DNA of 64,000 bases from Deltaproteobacteria bacterium (GTDB lineage Bacteria; Desulfobacterota; Binatia; Binatales; Binataceae): NCBI GenBank assembly GCA_021794015.1, contig JAJYRQ010000001.1:39448-103447 (forward strand), in the 5' to 3' direction. The notes beneath the pieces were generated by a model, which was given only the letters and a program-made list of their open reading frames with translations, was not told where the DNA came from and did no database searches. Positions 716-63,447 of this stretch are shown piece after piece. How positions within the stretch are numbered: position 1 is the stretch's first letter; every line of letters starts with the position of its first letter. The position numbers were made by a program, and so were the translations under genes.

Positions 716-3667
716 ATGGCTGAGGGGCTGTCTCGACGGTCGTTCATCAAGCTGGCTGCCACCGCGTCGGTGGCGGCGTTGCCGGGGTGCGAGCCGGCCG
801 CGCGCAAGCTTATTCCGTACGTCGTACCGGACGATAACGTGATTCCGGGCGTGCCGGCCTTCTATGCAACGGTCTGTGCCGAGTGCAGTGCCGGATGCGG
901 CGTGGTGGCGCGCGTGCGCGAGGGACGAGTCGTCAAGCTGGAAGGCAACCCGGTCGATCCCATCAGCCAGGGAGCGCTTTGCGCACGCGGACAAGCCGCG
1001 CTGCAGGGACTTTACAACCCCGACCGACTGGGCGCCCCGATGCTGCGGCGCAAGGACGGAACGCTGGAAGCTGTCTCCTGGGACAAGGCGCTCGGTCTGC
1101 TCGACGAGCGGCTGCAGGCGGCGGCAAAAAAAGGCGCGAACCGCGTAGCTTATTTTGGCAGCCGGCAAGGCCCGACGCTCGACAAACTTGCCCGGCTCTG
1201 GCTTTCGGCCTGGGGTTCGAACCGGCTCATCGCCTACGAAGCGCTCAACGACGAGGCCGAACGGGCCGCAGCCAAAGCCTGTTTCGGGCGTACTGACCTG
1301 CCGGTCTACCGGATCGACCAGGCCGAAGCGTTGGTTTCATTTGGCGCCGATTTTCTCGAGACCTGGGGCTCGCCGGTGGAATACGCCCGCCAGTACGCGG
1401 CTTTCCGCGCACCGCGCCCGCTTCATGGCGGAACCGTCGTGGGCCGCTCCGCCTACGTTGGCCCACGCCTTAGCATGACCGCAGCCAAGTGCGACCAATG
1501 GGTTGCGGCCAGGCCGGGCACCGAGGGGCTGGTCGCGCTCGGCGTGCTCAATGTGCTGGTGAACCAAGGTTGGCTGCCTCATGACTCGGGAGTCGACCTC
1601 GAGGCGCTGCGCGGTTTGGTGGGCATGTATACGCCGGCTGCGATCGCCGGGCGCTGCGGCGTTGAGGCCAAGGCCATCGTCCGGCTGGGCGAGCTCTTCG
1701 GTCAGGCACACAGCGCGGTTGCGCTGGCCGGCACTGACGACCCAACCGCCCATATCGGCGCCTTGATCCTGAACACCGTTACCGGGAACCTCGGCCGCAC
1801 GGTGGTCTTTACCGACGCCGGCCCACCGCCCCCGCCGACCACCGGCCGGGCCGAGGTGGAAGCGCAAGTCGCCGCGATGAAGGCGGCCGAGGTGGATGTC
1901 GTCGTCGTGGCCGGCGCCAATCCGATCTACGCGATGCCGGCTTCGGCCGGGGTGGCCGAGGCGCTGGCCCGGGTGCCGTTGGTCGTCTGGATGGGCCAGG
2001 TCCCTGACGAGACGGCCGCTTATGCCGGCCTGCTGCTGCCGATCGACCATCCGCTGGAGAGCTGGCACGACGTGATGCCGCGGGCAGGTAACTACGGCCT
2101 GGGTCAGCCGGTGATGCAGCGGGTTTTTCCGACGATGGCGCTGGGCGATCTGCTCATCCGCTCGGCGCGGGCCGGAGGGCTCGGCCCCAAGGAACTTCCC
2201 TGGCAGGACGCTTCGCAGGCGGTTGCGGCGAGCTGGCAGGAGTTACGCGCTCGTTACCAGCCCTCGCAAAGCGCCGATGATTTCTGGACCTCGGTGCGCC
2301 GCCATGGCGGACTTTTCCTGCAGCCGGGTACGGCCGGCGTCAAGCTCGATCCGGCAGTGCTCAAGACCGCGCCCAATCTGCCCGAGCCGGCCGAGTTGGT
2401 ACTGGCCGCCTTCGCCCATCCCTTCTTCTTCGACGGGCGGGGAGCGGACAAGCCCTGGTTGCAGGAAATCCCGGAGCCGGTGACCCAGGTCGTATGGAAC
2501 AGTTGGGCCGAGATTCATCCCGAGACCGCGCGCCAGCTTGGGCTTACCGGCCGGGCCAGCCAGCTTTGGCTCTCGGCCGAGGTCGACGTTCTTGAGATCG
2601 CGTCGAGCCAGGGGCGCGTCGAGCTGCCGGTTTACATCGCCCAGACCGTGCGGCCGGGCGTGATCGCCGCACCGCTCGGACAGGGCCACAGCGCCTACGG
2701 GCGCTACGCCCGGGGGCGCGGCGCCAACCTGTTCCAGCTTTTGCCCGCCGGCGCGCTCAGCGTCGCGGTCAAGGCGCGGCCCACCGGAAAGAAGCAACGC
2801 CTGGTCTCGCCGCTCGGCAAAAGCGAAATGATGGGCCGCGCCCTCGTCGAGGCGATAAGTGTCGAGGAGCTCGCGCGCGGCGTGGCGCCGCGCCCCGAGG
2901 CGCCCGAGGCTCCCGAACCTCACGAGTTCTACGCCCCGTTCAAGTACCCCGTCCACCAGTGGGGCATGACGATCGACGTCAACGCCTGCACCGGATGCAG
3001 CGCCTGCGTGGCGGCCTGTTACGCCGAGAACAACGTGCCGGTGGTGGGAGAGGAAGGCGTCGAGCGCGGGCGAATCATGTCCTGGATCCGGATCGAGCGC
3101 TTTTTCCCGGCCCAGGAGAAGGCCGGCCACGCGCCTCTGCTCTACCTGATGCCGATGCTTTGCCAGCAGTGCGATCACGCGCCGTGCGAGCCGGTCTGCC
3201 CGGTTTTCGCCGCGGTCCATACCGAGGAAGGGCTCAACGGGCAGATTTACAACCGTTGCGTCGGGACCCGTTACTGCGAGAACAACTGCCCCTACAAGGT
3301 GCGCCGCTTCAACTGGTTTGCCCCCCAGTGGCCGGCGCCGCTGGATCTGCAGCTTAACCCCGACGTGACCGTGCGCGGCGCCGGCGTGATGGAGAAGTGC
3401 ACCTTCTGCTTCCAGCGCATCCGGCACGCCGAGATTACCGCCAAGCTGGAGAATCGGCCGGTGCGCGACGGCGAGATTGTCCCCGCCTGCGCTCAGAGCT
3501 GCCCCAGCAAAGCCATCAGCTTCGGAGACATGAATGAACCGCAAAGCGCCATGATGCGCCGGCGCGCCGACCACCGGCTGCGCAACTACGCGGCGCTTGC
3601 CGAACTGAACACGCGGCCGGCAATCACCTACCTGCGCGCGGTTTATCACGGGAAGGGGAAAGCCTAA
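716..3667 (+). CDS. actB: ACIII subunit ActB (fused B1/B2): molybdopterin-oxidoreductase-like domain plus 4Fe-4S ferredoxin domain, with a Tat signal
   Basis: 983 aa. N-terminal twin-arginine motif RRSFIKLAA. Multiple Cys clusters ([34 protein letters not shown]) typical of the NrfC/PsrB-like iron-sulfur domain. Size and operon position match ActB. Confidence 0.85.
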
Positions 3668-15944: not shown

Positions 15945-16750
15945 GAAGCTCAGCTCCGGATTCGCCCAAACATAGTAAGGTGTGCCAGCAAGCGATTTTC
16001 GTGCCGGATGGCCGCACTGATGTCGCGTGTCGTTCCGACTCGATACGATGGTGGCCGACTCTTATAAGCCGGAATTAGCGTTTTGACCCCTCCCCGTCAG
16101 CAGAATCATGCGGCAAATGTGCGCGCTAACGCAACTTTGTGGGGCGTCTGCCGCTGCACGCGCTTGGGTCTGCCGGCAAAGCGCTCGGTCCTATCGCTTT
16201 GCCGGCCTGAAACTGCGGTCTGGGCCACCTGGGGCGGTTTTCCACAGGCACCTCTGCGTCGGCAATCGGCGCGGCGCCTCTTTTGTTGTCATTCCCGCGC
16301 GCGTGTCGGGCGCGCGCGAGGAATCCCGAATCCGGGCTACGCCTGGGTCTGGCGTAGAGCCACAACGTTGCCGCAGCAGGCCGGCCAAGCTGTGTCCCTG
16401 CGCAGCTACGACGCTCACATCATGAATAGCCTCTGCCACACGCTCTGCAGCGGAGCAACCAACGACCTGGAACGCCGGGCTCGCCGGCAGAAACTCGGCG
16501 CCACAGGATCATTCACGGCGCGTTACAACGTCGAGCGCCTGTTCTCCGCCGAGCAGCGCCACGATGTCGGCGCAGCGATCGCCCGCGCGAGTGCGGACAA
16601 GCGGCTGAGCCGTACGGGCAAGCTCGCACTTATCGAATGGGCAAATCCTCAGTGGAACGACTTGGGCGGCGAATAGGACGAAGTTGCGGCAAGACCACAG
16701 CCGGGCAAAGCGCGAAGAGTGTTTGCAAAACCGGGAATCCTCGCACGGCA

Positions 16751-16843
16751 GGCCATTGCATGGCGGCAGGGACACGCGCCGCGCATCTTCGCATTGCGCT
16801 CCCGCTGGTCGGGCAAGCTGCCGTGCGGTCAGCACCGCGCGCG
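16751..16843 (+). repeat. Dispersed intergenic repeat, copy R1 (approx. 93 nt)
   Basis: 93/93 nt gap-free alignment with 60601-60693 at about 93% identity. Shares the internal hairpin GCCA-ttgca-TGGC, a duplicated CATTGC, and the TTGCGCTCCCGYTGGTCGGGC core with the tandem array at 23698-23895. Confidence 0.8.
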
Positions 16844-16930
16844 TGAATGACAAACAGGCCCGGGGCCGGGCAGAACCCGTGTAAGTATATTGTGCGGGAC
16901 TTAATAATGGAGCCGTTCCTCGGCAGACCG

Positions 16931-23697: not shown

Positions 23698-23895
23698 CTG
23701 GCCACTGCGTGGCGGCTGGATGGAGCGGCAAGCGACGCGGCGTTGCGCTCCCGTTGGTCGGGCGGGTTGGCCTGCGGGCGCCGACTGGCCACTGCGTGGC
23801 GGCTGGATGGAGCGGCAAGCGACGCGGCGTTGCGCTCCCGTTGGTCGGGCGAGTTGGCCTGCGGGCGCCGACTGGCCACTGCGTGGCGGGCGGCG
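23698..23895 (+). repeat. Tandem array (2.3 copies) of an 87-bp unit belonging to the same repeat family as R1/R2
   Basis: Units at 23698-23784 and 23785-23871 differ by 1 nt. A partial third unit runs 23872-23895. The unit contains GGCCAcugcgUGGC and GCGTTGCGCTCCCGTTGGTCGGGCG. Lies between the convergent genes ahcY and the TVP38/DedA gene. Confidence 0.85.
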
Positions 23896-58889: not shown

Positions 58890-58916
58890 TAGTACGTTCC
58901 TAGTAAAGTGTTAGTA
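58890..58916. promoter_or_regulatory. Three TAGTA direct repeats at 11-bp spacing in a 25-bp divergent intergenic region (candidate MocR operator)
   Basis: cTAGTAcgttccTAGTAaagtgtTAGTAcatg. The repeats span both start codons. The block is AT-rich within a high-GC genome. Confidence 0.4.
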
Positions 58917-60230
58917 CATGATTACATAACCGGCCGCACTGCCGTCAAGATTGCCGCCGGGATCGAAGCCTGCCTACGGGCTGGCCGACTCAAGCCGGGC
59001 GCGCTGCTGCCCCCGGTGCGCCGCCTTGCGCGTTCGCTTGGAGTAAGCCCGGCGACGGTTTTGGCGGCTTACCGCGAGCTCAGGCTGCGCGGCCTGCTCA
59101 CGGGCGAGGGCCGGCGTGGCAGTCGGATTGCCGCGCGGCCTGCGCTGGCGCTTGCCGTGGAGGCGCCCATTGCGCCAGGCGTGCGCGACTTGTCCGATGG
59201 CAATCCTGCGGCTGAGTTGCTGCCGGCGCTAAGACCTGTGCTATCCCGACTTGGCCGGGTGCCGGTGCTTTACGGCGCGCCGGTGGCGCTGCCGGAGCTG
59301 CTGAAGCTTGCGCGCCGCGACTTCGAGGCGGACGCAATACCGGCTGAGAACATCGCGGTGGTTGGCGGCTCGCTGGACGGAATTGAACGGGTGGTGCAGG
59401 CTCAGCTTCGGTCCGGAGACCGGGTTGCGGTCGAGGACCCGGGCTTTCCACGGGTATTCGACTTGTTACTGGCACTGGGCCTGCGCCTGGTTGCAGTGGC
59501 GGTAGATGATGACGGTCCCCGCCCGCAGGCGCTTGCGCAGGCGCTGCGCTCAGGGGTTCAGGCCTTTATCGTGACGCCGCGGGCGCAAAATCCCACCGGC
59601 GCCGCGCTTAGCGCTGAGCGGGCGGAAGAGCTGCGCCAGGTTCTTCGCGCCTATCCTGACTGCCTGGTAATCGAAGACGATCATGCGGGCATGGTCTGCG
59701 GGGCGCCGGCGACCTCTCTGGTCGAACCAGGGTGCGCGCGCTGGGCGGTGCTCCGGTCGGTATCGAAGTGGCTCGGGCCCGATTTGCGGTTGGCCTTGAT
59801 GGCGGGCGATGCGACCACGGTGGCCAGGGTTGAGGGGCGACGCCTGCTTGGCACCGGCTGGGTAAGCCATCTTTTGCAGCGGCTGGTGGTGGGGTTGTGG
59901 TCGGCCCAAAGCACGCTTGAGCTTTTGCAGCGTGCCGCCCGGGTCTACGCTGAGCGGCGGCAGGCGCTGCTTGCGGCGCTGGCGCAACACGGTCTTACGG
60001 CGCGCGGGCGCTCGGGCCTTAACGTATGGGTCGAGGTGCCCGAGGAGGCTGCGGTCGTTCAGGCGCTGCTCAAAGCGGGTTGGGCGGTCGCCGCGGGCGA
60101 GCGCTTCCGGCTGCAGAGCCGGCCGGCCGTGCGTGTTACGGCTTCCAGCCTTGAGCCGGCCGAGGCCAGCGCGCTGGCGCGCCACTTGGCGCGATGCTTG
60201 GAGCAGCGCCGGCGCACGCCGCAAAGCTAA
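58908..60230 (+). CDS. MocR/GabR-type transcriptional regulator (GntR HTH plus aminotransferase-fold domain)
   Basis: N-terminal GntR HTH (LPPVRRLARSLGVSPATVLAAYRELRLRGLL). Class I/II aminotransferase-like C-terminal domain of about 350 aa. GTG start. Confidence 0.8.
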   Translation: MLVHDYITGRTAVKIAAGIEACLRAGRLKPGALLPPVRRLARSLGVSPATVLAAYRELRLRGLLTGEGRRGSRIAARPALALAVEAPIAPGVRDLSDGNPAAELLPALRPVLSRLGRVPVLYGAPVALPELLKLARRDFEADAIPAENIAVVGGSLDGIERVVQAQLRSGDRVAVEDPGFPRVFDLLLALGLRLVAVAVDDDGPRPQALAQALRSGVQAFIVTPRAQNPTGAALSAERAEELRQVLRAYPDCLVIEDDHAGMVCGAPATSLVEPGCARWAVLRSVSKWLGPDLRLALMAGDATTVARVEGRRLLGTGWVSHLLQRLVVGLWSAQSTLELLQRAARVYAERRQALLAALAQHGLTARGRSGLNVWVEVPEEAAVVQALLKAGWAVAAGERFRLQSRPAVRVTASSLEPAEASALARHLARCLEQRRRTPQS

Positions 60231-60235
60231 AGCCC

Positions 60236-60267
60236 TGCGCCGGCGTGCTGTGGCCGCCGGCGCAGGC
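60236..60267 (+). terminator. Strong GC hairpin immediately after the mocR stop
   Basis: CCTGCGCCGGCG-tgctgtg-GCCGCCGGCGCAGG, a 12-bp perfect stem. There is no U-tract, as is common in high-GC genomes. Confidence 0.45.
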
Positions 60268-60600
60268 GGAGTCTTGGCAGCGCGGGACGTCCTTCCCTTT
60301 CTCCGCCGGCAGAGGGGGCGACAAGGATGCGGCCGGGACCTGCTCTTTGCTCCCTTTTTAGGGAGGGCTTATCTTATTGAGGATTGCATATTATAGCGAC
60401 AGTTTCATTCCTGCCGGGCTACTTTGGCGTGTCGTTCTCACGCGCAAAGGGTCCCTCGGCGGCCCTGAGCACGCCGAGGACGGCGGCTGGCGCGCCGGGA
60501 AGCTCGAGCTTTCGCCCGCGCCGCGCCGGCGCAGTCCGCGATTCCTCGCGCGCAGCCAGTGCCTGGCGCGGCAAGGCCCCGGGGCCCCTCGCGCGCGCCG

Positions 60601-60693
60601 GGCCATTGCATGGCGGCAGGCAGACGCGTCGCGCATCCCCGCATTGCGCTCCCGCTGGTCGAGCAAGCTGCCGTGCGGTCAGCACCGCGCGCG
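60601..60693 (+). repeat. Dispersed intergenic repeat, copy R2
   Basis: 93-nt gap-free match to 16751-16843 (6 mismatches). The flanking upstream GATTCCTCGCGCGCAG motif and the downstream AT-rich block are also shared. Confidence 0.8.
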
Positions 60694-60715
60694 GGGGTGA
60701 CAGAGACGGGGGGCC

Positions 60716-60796
60716 CTCTTTTCCTCTCCCTCTCCGCCGGCGGGGGAGAGGATCGAGGCGCCGCCCTGAGCGGAGCGCAAGCGGAGTCGAAGGGAG
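60716..60796 (+). repeat. GC-rich hairpin repeat (family E2), copy b
   Basis: CCTCTCCCTCTCC-gccggcggg-GGAGAGG hairpin plus CCCTGAGCGGAGCGCAAGCGGAGTCGAAGGG, related to 42411-42480. A shorter relative is at 60290-60320. Confidence 0.55.
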
Positions 60797-60875
60797 ACGC
60801 ACCGCGCGTGGCAATGACGGAACGACGCGCGACCGAGCGGAAGCTGCGTAACTATATTGTGCAGTATTGAATAGT

Positions 60876-61811
60876 ATGGCAATGGCCTTGAGATTTGGGT
60901 GGCGCAAAGGCAGGCATTCGCGCAGCAGGGGCGCCGTCGAGGTCGGGGAGCCGAGCGCCGGCTACCGCGGCAGCCGGTTGTTCGGCGGGCTTAGGACCGG
61001 CAGCGGGCAGACCGATCTGTATCACTTTCTGCTTGCCTCGCCATGGCCGGTGCTTCTGCTCATGGGTGGCGCGGCGCTGGTGGTGGTGAACAGCCTCTTT
61101 GCCCTGGCCTATATGCTGAGCCGGGGGCTGGAGGCGGCGCAGCCGTTGTCCTTTGTCGATGTCTTTCTTTTCAGCGTGCAGACGATGGCCACCGTCGGCT
61201 CGAGTCAGGCGGTGGCGCGCACGGTGATGGCCAACGCGCTGGTCGGCCTGGAAGCGACTACGGGTTTCTGCGTTCTGGCGATTGCCACGGCGGTTTCGTT
61301 TGCCCGCATTTCGCGGCCCACGGCGCGGGTGCGTTTCAGCAGGGTAGCGGTGGTTAGCCAGCGCGACGGCGCGCCGGCGCTCTGGTTTCGCATGGCCAAT
61401 GTGCGCGGCAATCGCATCGTCGAGGCGCAGGTCCGGCTGATGCTGGCGCGGTGGGAAACGACGGCCGAGGGCGAGCCGCTGCGCCGGCTTTACGACCTGG
61501 CGTTGGTGCGCGACCGCACGGCGTTGTTTGCGCTGAGTTGGTCGGTGTTTCATCGGCTGGACGGCGACAGCCCGCTGTGCAACGCCACACCTCAGACGCT
61601 TTTGGCCGGCAAGGCGCTAATCGTCGTTTCGGTCACCGGGATCGACGAGACTTTCATGCAAACGGTGCATGCGCGCCACGTTTACCGCCCGCAGGAGGTC
61701 ATCTTCGGCGCGCGCCTGGCCGACATCTTAAGCGAGAGCGTAGAGGGACGGCTGCTGGTTGACTATGCGCGCTTCGACGAAGTGATTGTTCTGCCTGAAG
61801 GAGCGCAATGA
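60876..61811 (+). CDS. KirBac-like inward-rectifier K+ channel homologue with a degenerate selectivity filter
   Basis: Kir architecture: a two-TM pore domain (LLMGGAALVVVNSLFALAYML...FSVQTMATVGSS) plus an IRK C-terminal beta-rich domain (FARISRPTARVRFSRVAVV...MANVRGN). The canonical T-I/V-G-Y-G is replaced by TVGSS. Start ambiguous (TTG 60867 or ATG 60876). Confidence 0.65.
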   Translation: MAMALRFGWRKGRHSRSRGAVEVGEPSAGYRGSRLFGGLRTGSGQTDLYHFLLASPWPVLLLMGGAALVVVNSLFALAYMLSRGLEAAQPLSFVDVFLFSVQTMATVGSSQAVARTVMANALVGLEATTGFCVLAIATAVSFARISRPTARVRFSRVAVVSQRDGAPALWFRMANVRGNRIVEAQVRLMLARWETTAEGEPLRRLYDLALVRDRTALFALSWSVFHRLDGDSPLCNATPQTLLAGKALIVVSVTGIDETFMQTVHARHVYRPQEVIFGARLADILSESVEGRLLVDYARFDEVIVLPEGAQ

Positions 61812-61848
61812 GAGCGCGCCGGCGCGGGCGCAGTCCGGCGGCCGGCGC

Positions 61849-63447
61849 CTAATGGGCGCCGGCGCTGCTCGCCCCGGCCGCCCCGCGGCGAAACAGCAGC
61901 GCCCACGGCACCATCAGGAGCGCCACCAGGGCCAGCAGGCGGTAGACGTCGTTGAACGAGAGCAAGAGCGCCTGGCCCTCGACCTGCTTGAGCAGCAGGC
62001 CCAAGCCCTGTTTCTGGCCGGTTGCCAGCTCGAGCGGGAAGTTGAACTTCGGCGCTCCCGGCATCCGCGGCGCCGTGCTGCTCAGCCGCCACAGGACAAA
62101 CGGCGTAACATGCCCGACCAAGTACGACTGATGCACCTGGGGCAGCCGTTCGAGCAGATTGCTCACCATCGAGACGCCGATCGCCGAGCCGGTGTTGCGC
62201 AGCATGTTGTAAAGGCTGGCGGCGAAACCCATCCGCGCTGGCGCAACGCTGCTCAGCGCCGCCGAAGCCAGAAAAGGAAAAACCATCCCGCTTCCCACCC
62301 CCATCAGCAGAATCGGCAACTGAATGGAGTAGGCGCTCACCGTGGTGTCCCACTGAGACATCTGCCAGGACGACCAGGCCAGCAGGACGAAACCGAGACT
62401 GGTCAAAAACCGCGTGTCAACACCCGTGCGGGCCAACTGGCCCACCAGAATCATTGAAGCCGCCACGCCCACGCCGCGGCTGGCCACGGCCAGCCCCGCG
62501 TTCCACGCGGTGTAGCCCATCAGCTCCTGCAGGAAGAGCGGGTTCATCAGGTTGGCCCCGTAGAGCACGACCACCAGGAGCGAGACCATCAGGGCGCTCA
62601 GGCTGAACTCGCGGATGCGAAAAACCGTCAGGTCCAAAACCGGCGCGGAAAAACGCAGCTCGTGAACCACCAATAGAACCGCCGAGACTGCCGAGGTCAG
62701 CGTCAAATACCAGACCCACGGCGCCGCAAACCAGTCCGAACGCTCGCCCCGGTCGAGCACCATTTGCAGGGCGCCGAGGCTCAAAGCCAGGAAGGCGATC
62801 CCCAGGTAGTCAATCCGCGCCTGCGCCCGGCGCTGGAGCTTAAGATAACTGGGATCATGCACGAAGGTATAAACCATCAAGGAAGCGGCCGCTCCGATCG
62901 GAAGATTGATGTAGAAGTTCCAGCGCCAACTCCAGTTGTAGGTTATCCAACCGCCCACCACGGGGCCCATGACCGGGGCGACCATTAGCCCGAGCCCCCA
63001 GGCCGCCATGGCCATCTGCCGCTCCTCGGGCGCGAAGGTTTCCATCAGGATTGCCTGGGAGGTGGGGATCATGGCTGCCCCGGCTGCGCCCTGGAAGAGC
63101 CGGAAAAAGACCATCTGGTCAAGCGACTGCGCGGCGCCGCAAAGCCAGGAGGCGAACAGGAACATGAAAACCGAAAACATGAAGTAGCGCTTGCGCCCGA
63201 AACGCGCCGACAACCATCCGGTCAGCGGGATCATGATCCCGTTCGAAACCAGGTAGCTGGTCAACACCCAGGTGATCTGATCGCGGCTGACCGAGAAAGT
63301 GCCCTCCATGTAGGGCAACGCGACATTGACGATGGAGGTGTCGAGCAACTCAAGGGCCGCGCAAAAAACTACCGCAAACGCGATGAGCCACTTGTGGCGC
63401 GCAGGGCTGGAGGGCGCGGCCGCGCCGGCCGGAGCCTTGTCTTCCAT
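61849..63447 (-). CDS. emrB: MFS drug-efflux transporter, DHA2 (EmrB/QacA, 14-TMS) family
   Basis: 532 aa. DHA2 signatures (LDTSIVNVALP, GWLSARFGRKR). Confidence 0.85.
   Translation of the reverse strand: MEDKAPAGAAAPSSPARHKWLIAFAVVFCAALELLDTSIVNVALPYMEGTFSVSRDQITWVLTSYLVSNGIMIPLTGWLSARFGRKRYFMFSVFMFLFASWLCGAAQSLDQMVFFRLFQGAAGAAMIPTSQAILMETFAPEERQMAMAAWGLGLMVAPVMGPVVGGWITYNWSWRWNFYINLPIGAAASLMVYTFVHDPSYLKLQRRAQARIDYLGIAFLALSLGALQMVLDRGERSDWFAAPWVWYLTLTSAVSAVLLVVHELRFSAPVLDLTVFRIREFSLSALMVSLLVVVLYGANLMNPLFLQELMGYTAWNAGLAVASRGVGVAASMILVGQLARTGVDTRFLTSLGFVLLAWSSWQMSQWDTTVSAYSIQLPILLMGVGSGMVFPFLASAALSSVAPARMGFAASLYNMLRNTGSAIGVSMVSNLLERLPQVHQSYLVGHVTPFVLWRLSSTAPRMPGAPKFNFPLELATGQKQGLGLLLKQVEGQALLLSFNDVYRLLALVALLMVPWALLFRRGAAGASSAGAH

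Follow-up and report, generated by a model that had tools for sequence, protein, structure and literature searches.

In K+ channels, the carbonyls of the filter sequence T-V-G-Y, together with the Thr hydroxyl, form four contiguous K+ sites, and the K+ selectivity of such pores is usually explained via engineered mutants of a few model pores. The NaK channel (TVGDG) has two sites and NaK2CNG (TVG-X-TPP) has three; both are non-selective, and K+ selectivity requires four contiguous sites (PMC3082925). Mutations in the filter of the inward-rectifier (Kir) channel Kir3.4, Y152C included, affect ion selectivity, and Na+ permeability has been shown for G151R and L168R (PMC6834635). Among the bacterial Kir homologues (KirBac), NirBac1.1 and NirBac1.2 carry foreign P-loops, are tetrameric, and discriminate little between Na+, K+, and Rb+, all of which they conduct; the flux is non-selective for monovalent cations and dependent on palmitoyl-oleoyl-phosphatidylglycerol (POPG) (PMC4607889). 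A third, NirBac2.1 (filter TTGTD), comes from Gemmatimonas aurantiaca; its P-loop frame is retained, and it was never characterised (PMC4607889, Zubcevic et al. 2015). With NirBac, KirBac homologues with non-canonical filters are already a published kind. Here, we describe a KirBac-type channel gene whose filter reads TVGSS, located in a 64,000-nt stretch of the Deltaproteobacteria bacterium assembly GCA_021794015.1 (contig JAJYRQ010000001.1, positions 39,448–103,447; hereafter the window, within which all coordinates are given), and a clade of KirBac homologues from uncultured bacteria with filters of the form T-x-G-S-x.

The window protein shares with KirBac3.1 and KirBac1.1 (Transporter Classification 1.A.2) the fold, the slide helix, the FSVQTMAT sequence, the hinge Gly of the second transmembrane helix (TM2), the aromatic bundle crossing, and the cytoplasmic domain, but has TVGSS where these channels have TIGYG or TVGYG, and has lost the post-filter Pro along with other conserved transmembrane (TM) and pore residues. 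Like the NirBac channels, as judged from the description of their filters, it combines overall KirBac homology with a non-canonical filter. It is closest in this respect to NirBac2.1, in which the general P-loop is likewise kept and only the signature is changed (TTGTD vs. TVGSS), whereas the entire P-loop is replaced in NirBac1.1 and NirBac1.2 and the window protein keeps its pore helix. The NaK, cyclic nucleotide-gated (CNG), and NaK2CNG pores also share the sequence pattern of T-(V/I)-G followed by two non-YG residues; however, the NaK and CNG pores have no homology to the window protein outside the pore, their post-filter loop is different, and the acidic residue that follows their Gly is absent from the window protein (TIGSD members of the clade described below have one a position later).

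The gene (Table 1) is a real and intact bacterial inward-rectifier-type channel gene. Its product is an exact match to MCL5044511.1, a record titled 'MAG: ion channel [Deltaproteobacteria bacterium]' (MAG, metagenome-assembled genome), and two alternative in-frame starts are present, an ATG at 60882 (giving 309 aa, and chosen by some gene callers) and a TTG at 60867. The Pfam model of the Kir cytoplasmic domain, IRK_C (PF17655), scored 94.4 bits where 22.5 is the cutoff (E = 7.9e-27), with a further match to the generic pore domain Ion_trans_2 at E = 1.3e-06. The IRK TM model (PF01007), present in most canonical relatives, fell below its gathering score (12.2 bits vs. a cutoff of 22.7), and no NCBIfam model matched the protein. 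In a sequence search of the PDB, KirBac3.1 was the best match (E = 1.7e-62; residues 40–303 of the query aligned to 29–293, 43% identity), followed by KirBac1.1 (~1e-55) and then by the eukaryotic Kir2, Kir3, Kir6, and Kir7. The alignment with KirBac3.1 shows an identical pore helix ('fsvqtmat'), with 'IGYG' of KirBac3.1 opposite 'VGSS'.

The AlphaFold2 (AF2) model of the window protein, built with 117 homologues (mean predicted local distance difference test score, pLDDT, 84.6), comprises a slide helix, TM1, pore helix, TM2, and beta-rich C-terminal domain, with the first 41 aa predicted to be disordered. When compared to the PDB with Foldseek, its top matches were all KirBac3.1 (E ~1e-32, TM-score up to 0.85). 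The TM2 hinge (G130) and the bundle-crossing Phe (F142, which aligns with Y132 of KirBac3.1) are both kept. The sequence-only reading of this DNA had described the protein as KirBac-like along its length and had allowed for another two-TM channel family; the IRK_C match, the KirBac3.1 alignment, and the Foldseek result bear out the former, and no other two-TM family outscores Kir in the Pfam and PDB searches. Its label of 'G-loop' for FARISRPTARVRF was misplaced, given that this segment is the end of TM2 and the linker to the cytoplasmic domain in the AF2 model.

The filter codons (ACC GTC GGC TCG AGT, nt. 61191–61205) encode TVGSS, and the motif recurs wherever this protein was found. The cluster that contains it at 90% identity has five members drawn from NCBI, JGI, ENA, and Logan, all with TVGSS. 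The 309-aa form occurs in 44 index blocks of the assembly collection, with a TVGSS filter on all 24 contigs that were read and an exact translation at each of the six loci returned (6/6). A variant diverged by 3% (L007) has filter codons identical to those of the window.

Among its relatives, the filter of the window protein is a rarity. The closest matches beyond its own cluster are only 50–57% identical, the nearest named relatives being Candidatus Binataceae. A search of the filter motif in the 120 best matches gave 119 with a matched motif, comprising 115 GYG, 2 GFG, 1 GSG, and 1 GSS (the query itself). An exhaustive HMMER scan of 1.84 billion cluster representatives returned 3,786 relatives at E ≤ 1e-3, and among the 149 most similar diverse representatives, 145 carried an intact GYG/GFG triplet (including P0207, with TIGGYG, an extra Gly ahead of the triplet) and 4 did not. 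The replacement of GYG by GSS that the sequence-only reading reported is thereby confirmed by both the KirBac3.1 alignment and the motif counts, and its question of whether relatives keep GYG is answered by these 145 representatives. Two further searches added little: a degenerate DNA pattern for QTMAT[IVM]G[S/T/C/W/R][S/T/C/W/R] gave 78 matches in JGI metagenome contigs with none Kir-like by BLASTP, a weak negative given that the lineage of the window was also absent, and a scan of the GTDB species genomes with query-specific peptides, which did not recover the window's own species, yielded just two Acidobacteria/Bryobacterales genes (40% identical), both with TIGYG.

Isolated non-canonical filters were also seen in P0017, P0202, P0258, and P0344 (TIGSG, TLG-G with a deletion, SLSVG, and the NaK-like TVGDN), and non-canonical filters amount to ~3% of the diverse KirBac representatives. 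Many homologues of 640–715 aa (P0145, P0186, P0194, P0197, P0200, P0217, P0220, P0224, and others) carry the KirBac unit at the C-terminus after an extension of ~430 aa; in P0261 (682 aa), the unit is N-terminal with a TVGQA filter.

The change in the window protein goes beyond the two filter residues noted in the sequence-only reading. At the 98 positions that are ≥90% conserved in relatives, the window protein deviates 15 times, with 11 of the deviations between residues 89 and 145 (R89Q, G91L, F98L, I107V, Y109S, G110S, P114A, L131F, G139A, L140V, and F145I). Four of the residues concerned (F98, G110, P114, and L131) are 100% invariant in the relatives. The TM/pore module accordingly deviates at 11 of its 38 conserved positions, compared to a mean of 0.87 (sd 1.03, maximum 4) across 119 relatives, whereas the cytoplasmic domain deviates at 4 of 55, compared to a mean of 1.7 (maximum 8) in the relatives; the concentration of deviations in the TM/pore module is significant (Fisher p = 0.0085). 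By this measure of conservation, the pore module is exceptionally diverged and the gating/regulatory domain is ordinary.

Non-canonical filters of a similar kind characterise a group of KirBac homologues from uncultured bacteria. A second TVGSS filter was found among the diverse representatives in P0128 (48% identical to the window protein), and a search with P0128 returned proteins with the filters TIGSA (P0274, P0275, and P0278), TIGSD (P0276 and P0277), TVGSL (P0280, P0281, and P0353), and TIGSL (P0284), along with one TVGDN. In neighbour-joining trees of 140 sequences, in which the clade was counted as the nine T-x-G-S-x proteins of comparable full length (P0128, P0274–P0278, P0280, P0281, and P0284), the nine grouped with a bootstrap of 100 when all columns were used, 96 when every pore column was dropped, and 90 when only the cytoplasmic domain was kept. 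Every member of the clade has the Thr, the first Gly, and a Ser where the Tyr would be, with S, A, D, or L as the last filter residue. Given the support for the clade, the invariance of these three residues, and the full-length open reading frames (ORFs; 295–312 aa) in eight of the nine members (the exception, P0128, is frameshifted), the T-x-G-S-x filter is evolutionarily stable.

The pore of the clade has also lost its special degree of conservation. Among canonical relatives, pairwise identity is 0.90 in the pore helix and 0.97 in the filter, compared to 0.64 overall; within the clade, it is 0.65 in the pore helix and 0.74 in the filter, with 0.65 overall, the pore helix being no more conserved than the protein average. 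Cytoplasmic-domain identity is 0.69 in the clade and 0.63 in canonical relatives. These identities indicate that, in the clade, the constraint of K+ selectivity is gone and that ordinary purifying selection on the pore persists.

The window protein resembles the clade in several ways, with a Ser for the Tyr and a non-Gly residue for the second Gly, an F-to-L change in the FFF stretch that opens the pore helix, and a PF01007 domain that is sub-threshold in the window protein and absent from the precomputed Pfam domains of the clade. It shares S56P, Y109S, G110S, and W277F with the clade, but has the canonical residue at all four clade signatures (V182L, F260L, H265P, and Y297A/S), and the clade keeps the post-filter Pro that the window protein lacks. 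When all columns are used, the window protein is sister to the clade at 64% bootstrap; when pore columns are removed, it groups with five canonical sequences beside the clade at 15–19%. On these trees, the window protein would be either a basal member of the T-x-G-S-x clade or a convergent case. A recombinant origin of its pore from the clade was considered and rejected, its pore helix being nearer to canonical sequences (0.76) than to the clade (0.56). The Ser109 codon is TCN throughout, one step from TAY. For Ser110, the window has AGT, a single change away from GGT, and P0128 has TCA, a single change away from the GCN Ala codon found in its sister group, which suggests that at least the fifth filter residue arose in parallel in the two.

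Our favoured reading, which we judge to be evenly balanced between right and wrong, is that the window protein would be a functional Kir-gated tetrameric pore that is non-selective for monovalent cations; both its conduction and its lack of selectivity are proposed by analogy with the channels introduced above. The forecast of the sequence-only reading, loss of either K+ selectivity or conduction, is likewise a reasonable one. Under our reading, the elements of gating (the slide helix, hinge Gly of TM2, Phe of the bundle crossing, and Kir cytoplasmic domain) are intact and the pore module has been remodelled. The filter keeps T-V-G, the source of the inner sites S2–S4 in K+ channels, and lacks the Tyr and second Gly by which the outer sites are formed and supported. 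Little discrimination between K+ and Na+ would be expected, because fewer than four contiguous K+ sites would be left, as in NaK, in the CNG-type T(V/I)G-X-T filters, and in NirBac. The changes behind the filter (F98L, M112A, P114A, L131F, and others) may be read as a remodelled filter support.

More tentatively, and with considerably less confidence, T-x-G-S-x could represent an undescribed, evolutionarily stable class of Kir filter with a defined new permeation (e.g., Na+ permeability or some other retuning of cation selectivity with Kir-type gating, not mere selectivity loss), reached independently at least twice, by the window lineage as well as by the clade of nine. In the literature searched, no channel paper mentions the motifs TVGSS, TIGSA, TIGSD, TVGSL, or TIGSL, and, as far as this search shows, the clade has not been described.

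Several points weigh against the favoured reading. Replacing the second Gly on its own usually leaves a canonical Kir channel non-functional. The pore helix and filter of the clade, not being conserved above the protein average, would also fit a pore that no longer matters. In the L007 variant (Logan SRR15116022, positions 1–1000), the N-terminus is put out of frame by an 11-bp tandem duplication (TCTGTATCACT), and TM1 has a 3-bp deletion. The P0128 gene on L091 (JGI 3300075769, ~3150–3400) is frameshifted inside TM1 at a T-run; ahead of its called start, the slide helix and the beginning of TM1 can be read in a different frame. The channel gene differs between the window and L007 by 17 non-synonymous and 9 synonymous changes, and its ratio of non-synonymous to synonymous substitution rates (dN/dS) of 0.67 compares with 0.33 for the adjacent major facilitator superfamily (MFS) gene; its dN is 3.4 times that of this neighbour (p = 0.003), and the ratio of non-synonymous to synonymous changes does not differ significantly between the two genes (p = 0.36), the 26 substitutions being too few to discriminate. 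Finally, the closest published analogue, NirBac2.1, is itself uncharacterised (PMC4607889).

Much of this would be explained if the gene were a loss-of-function allele en route to a pseudogene, in which filter mutations ended conduction, constraint on the pore was relaxed, and the intact ORF is slowly decaying. Frameshifts in both the sister variant (L007) and P0128, the raised dN relative to the neighbouring gene, the 11 deviations at conserved pore positions, and the sub-threshold score of the Pfam IRK TM model would all fit such decay. However, the ORF is intact and invariant over at least 24 contigs, and the deviations cluster in the TM/pore module, a pattern unlike the uniform decay of a pseudogene; plain decay would not spare the cytoplasmic domain, where the number of deviations lies within the range of relatives. 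A diverse clade with invariant T, G, and S in 9/9 members and mostly full-length ORFs is likewise difficult to reconcile with loss of function. The evidence of decay is suggestive only, because each frameshift is seen in only one short-read metagenome contig and could stem from misassembly. We therefore consider loss of function unlikely, while regarding it as the most serious competitor to a non-selective pore.

An improbable alternative is that the protein is a non-conducting or modulatory subunit, kept for cytoplasmic ligand or lipid sensing, or for co-assembly that alters or suppresses the conductance of a canonical KirBac. GYG mutants of eukaryotic Kir channels are dominant negatives, the conserved cytoplasmic domain and relaxed pore would suit such a role, and canonical KirBac genes (e.g., P0070) are present in MAGs of the same sample series. 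On the other hand, the 64-kb window contains no second Kir gene and none has been demonstrated in the same genome, we know of no heteromeric KirBac in bacteria, and the clade conserves T-x-G-S along with the pore helix motif, neither of which would be needed for a role confined to the cytoplasmic domain.

About as improbable is the possibility that the channel is still K+-selective through a different filter geometry. The precedent is TbIRK, a Kir homologue without TxGYG (filter GGYVG) that has a K+/Na+ selectivity of >7 (PMC5429665), and the window protein does keep T-V-G and the pore helix. Structures of NaK variants, however, indicate that four contiguous sites are required (PMC3082925), and the Tyr position and second Gly are almost never substituted in relatives (115 GYG and 2 GFG of 119; 145/149). 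The last rival, a sequencing or assembly artefact at the filter codons, which the sequence-only reading had itself raised, is refuted and retains practically no probability, because the identical filter occurs in independent ENA, NCBI, JGI, and Logan assemblies and in the 3%-diverged variant.

The natural set of Kir-fold proteins assembled here, with T-x-G kept, Ser fixed in place of Tyr, the last position varying between S, A, D, and L, and compensatory changes in the surroundings, may be viewed as an evolutionary experiment. It bears on the contribution of the Tyr and the second Gly, and on how a specialised K+ pore might be repurposed without giving up its gating domain. It also widens the NirBac observation from three genes of cultured organisms to a clade in uncultured bacteria, whose members lend themselves to flux assays and structural work. 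If the window protein were non-functional, it would represent simply a case of modular decay.

Table 1. Features of the channel gene and its surroundings (window coordinates).
Feature	Position (nt)	Strand	Remarks
Channel ORF	60876–61811	+	ATG start; 311 aa + stop; NCBI MCL5044511.1, 'ion channel'
Slide helix	61011–61037	+	aa 46–54; AF2 model, alignment
TM1	61044–61121	+	aa 57–82; AF2 model
Pore helix, SFVDVFLFSVQTMA	61152–61190	+	aa 93–105; FSVQTMA canonical; alignment, AF2 model
Selectivity-filter position, T106 V107 G108 S109 S110	61191–61205	+	replaces T-I/V-G-Y-G
Post-filter loop, QAVART	61206–61223	+	without the family-invariant Pro (P114A) and the conserved Met (M112A)
TM2	61224–61313	+	aa 117–146; unusual residues T128, F131, V133, A139, V140, I145
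Kir-type cytoplasmic beta-rich domain (IRK_C)	61314–61790	+	aa 147–305; conservation at family norm
EmrB-like MFS transporter	61849–63447	-	convergent with the channel gene
GntR-aminotransferase (MocR-type) regulator	58908–60230		ends 645 bp upstream of the channel gene
Terminator-like hairpin	60350–60365		after the MocR-type gene
Upstream non-coding DNA, ~500 bp	60375–60875	+	linked to the gene in three different upstream genomic contexts
Dispersed GC-rich palindromic repeat copy	60587–60693	+	90.7% identical to 16739–16843
AT-rich block, GTAACTATATTGTGC	60848–60862	+	14 nt upstream of the ATG; putative promoter or leader element

The channel gene appears to be monocistronic, with its own upstream region. 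Beyond the convergent MFS gene lie an EmrA/HlyD-like gene and then a TetR regulator, while on the other side, the MocR-type regulator is divergently paired with a minus-strand Pyridox_ox_2 gene (annotated at 3304–4002 on L001). The ~500 bp directly upstream of the channel gene remain linked to it as the more distant context varies: beyond ~60375, the MocR-type gene is found in L001, L002, and L005, a periplasmic binding protein in L003, and an OLD-TOPRIM and UvrD (Gabija-like) pair with an ORF6N gene in L004. The corresponding structural breakpoint (~60352–60375), ~500 bp 5' of the channel gene, marks either a variable island, a hot spot, or a chimeric assembly.

This upstream DNA contains one of at least four copies of a ~90–110-nt repeat in the 64 kb (16739–16843, two adjacent copies at ~23700–23880, and 60587–60693), with the core GCrTTGCGCTCCCGyTGGTCG. 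The repeat looks like a repetitive extragenic palindrome (REP) or a miniature inverted-repeat transposable element (MITE). It folds as a long hairpin, no better than shuffled sequence (z = -1.56), and Rfam returned nothing in the upstream region, the repeat included. The AT-rich block GTAAnTATATTGTGC occurs twice in the window (60848–60862 and 16881–16895, against a chance expectation of 0.03), in both cases following a repeat copy and lying 13–14 nt ahead of an ATG. A role at a gene start is doubtful for the copy at 16881, because the ORF of the downstream ATG overlaps a 579-aa minus-strand ORF. Regarding the 'repeat-derived promoter module' proposed from the sequence, the repeat is thus real, as its 90.7% identical copy attests, and the promoter found no backing, given that a sigma-70 scan of 60150–61950 returned zero sites.

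The canonical relatives P0014 and P0070 lie in a Cu-ATPase/abhydrolase/FUR context, unlike the window gene, and synteny is uninformative on orthology. Members of the T-x-G-S-x clade do lie near efflux-type genes, with a membrane fusion protein (MFP) and an MFS gene in L089, an MFP gene in L088, and a FUSC gene in L091; no conserved operon can be claimed, because the MFS genes beside the window gene and P0284 are just 37% identical. A PNPOx-like gene lies directly upstream of the TIGSD channel gene in L088, comparable to the Pyridox_ox_2 gene near the window channel, possibly by coincidence. In L089 (8560–12915), the TIGSL channel gene (P0284) adjoins conjugation genes for a TraD-like protein, a relaxase, and a type IV secretion system coupling protein, and an EmrAB-like MFP and MFS pair and a sigma-54 activator also lie beside it, a neighbourhood that suggests a mobile element.

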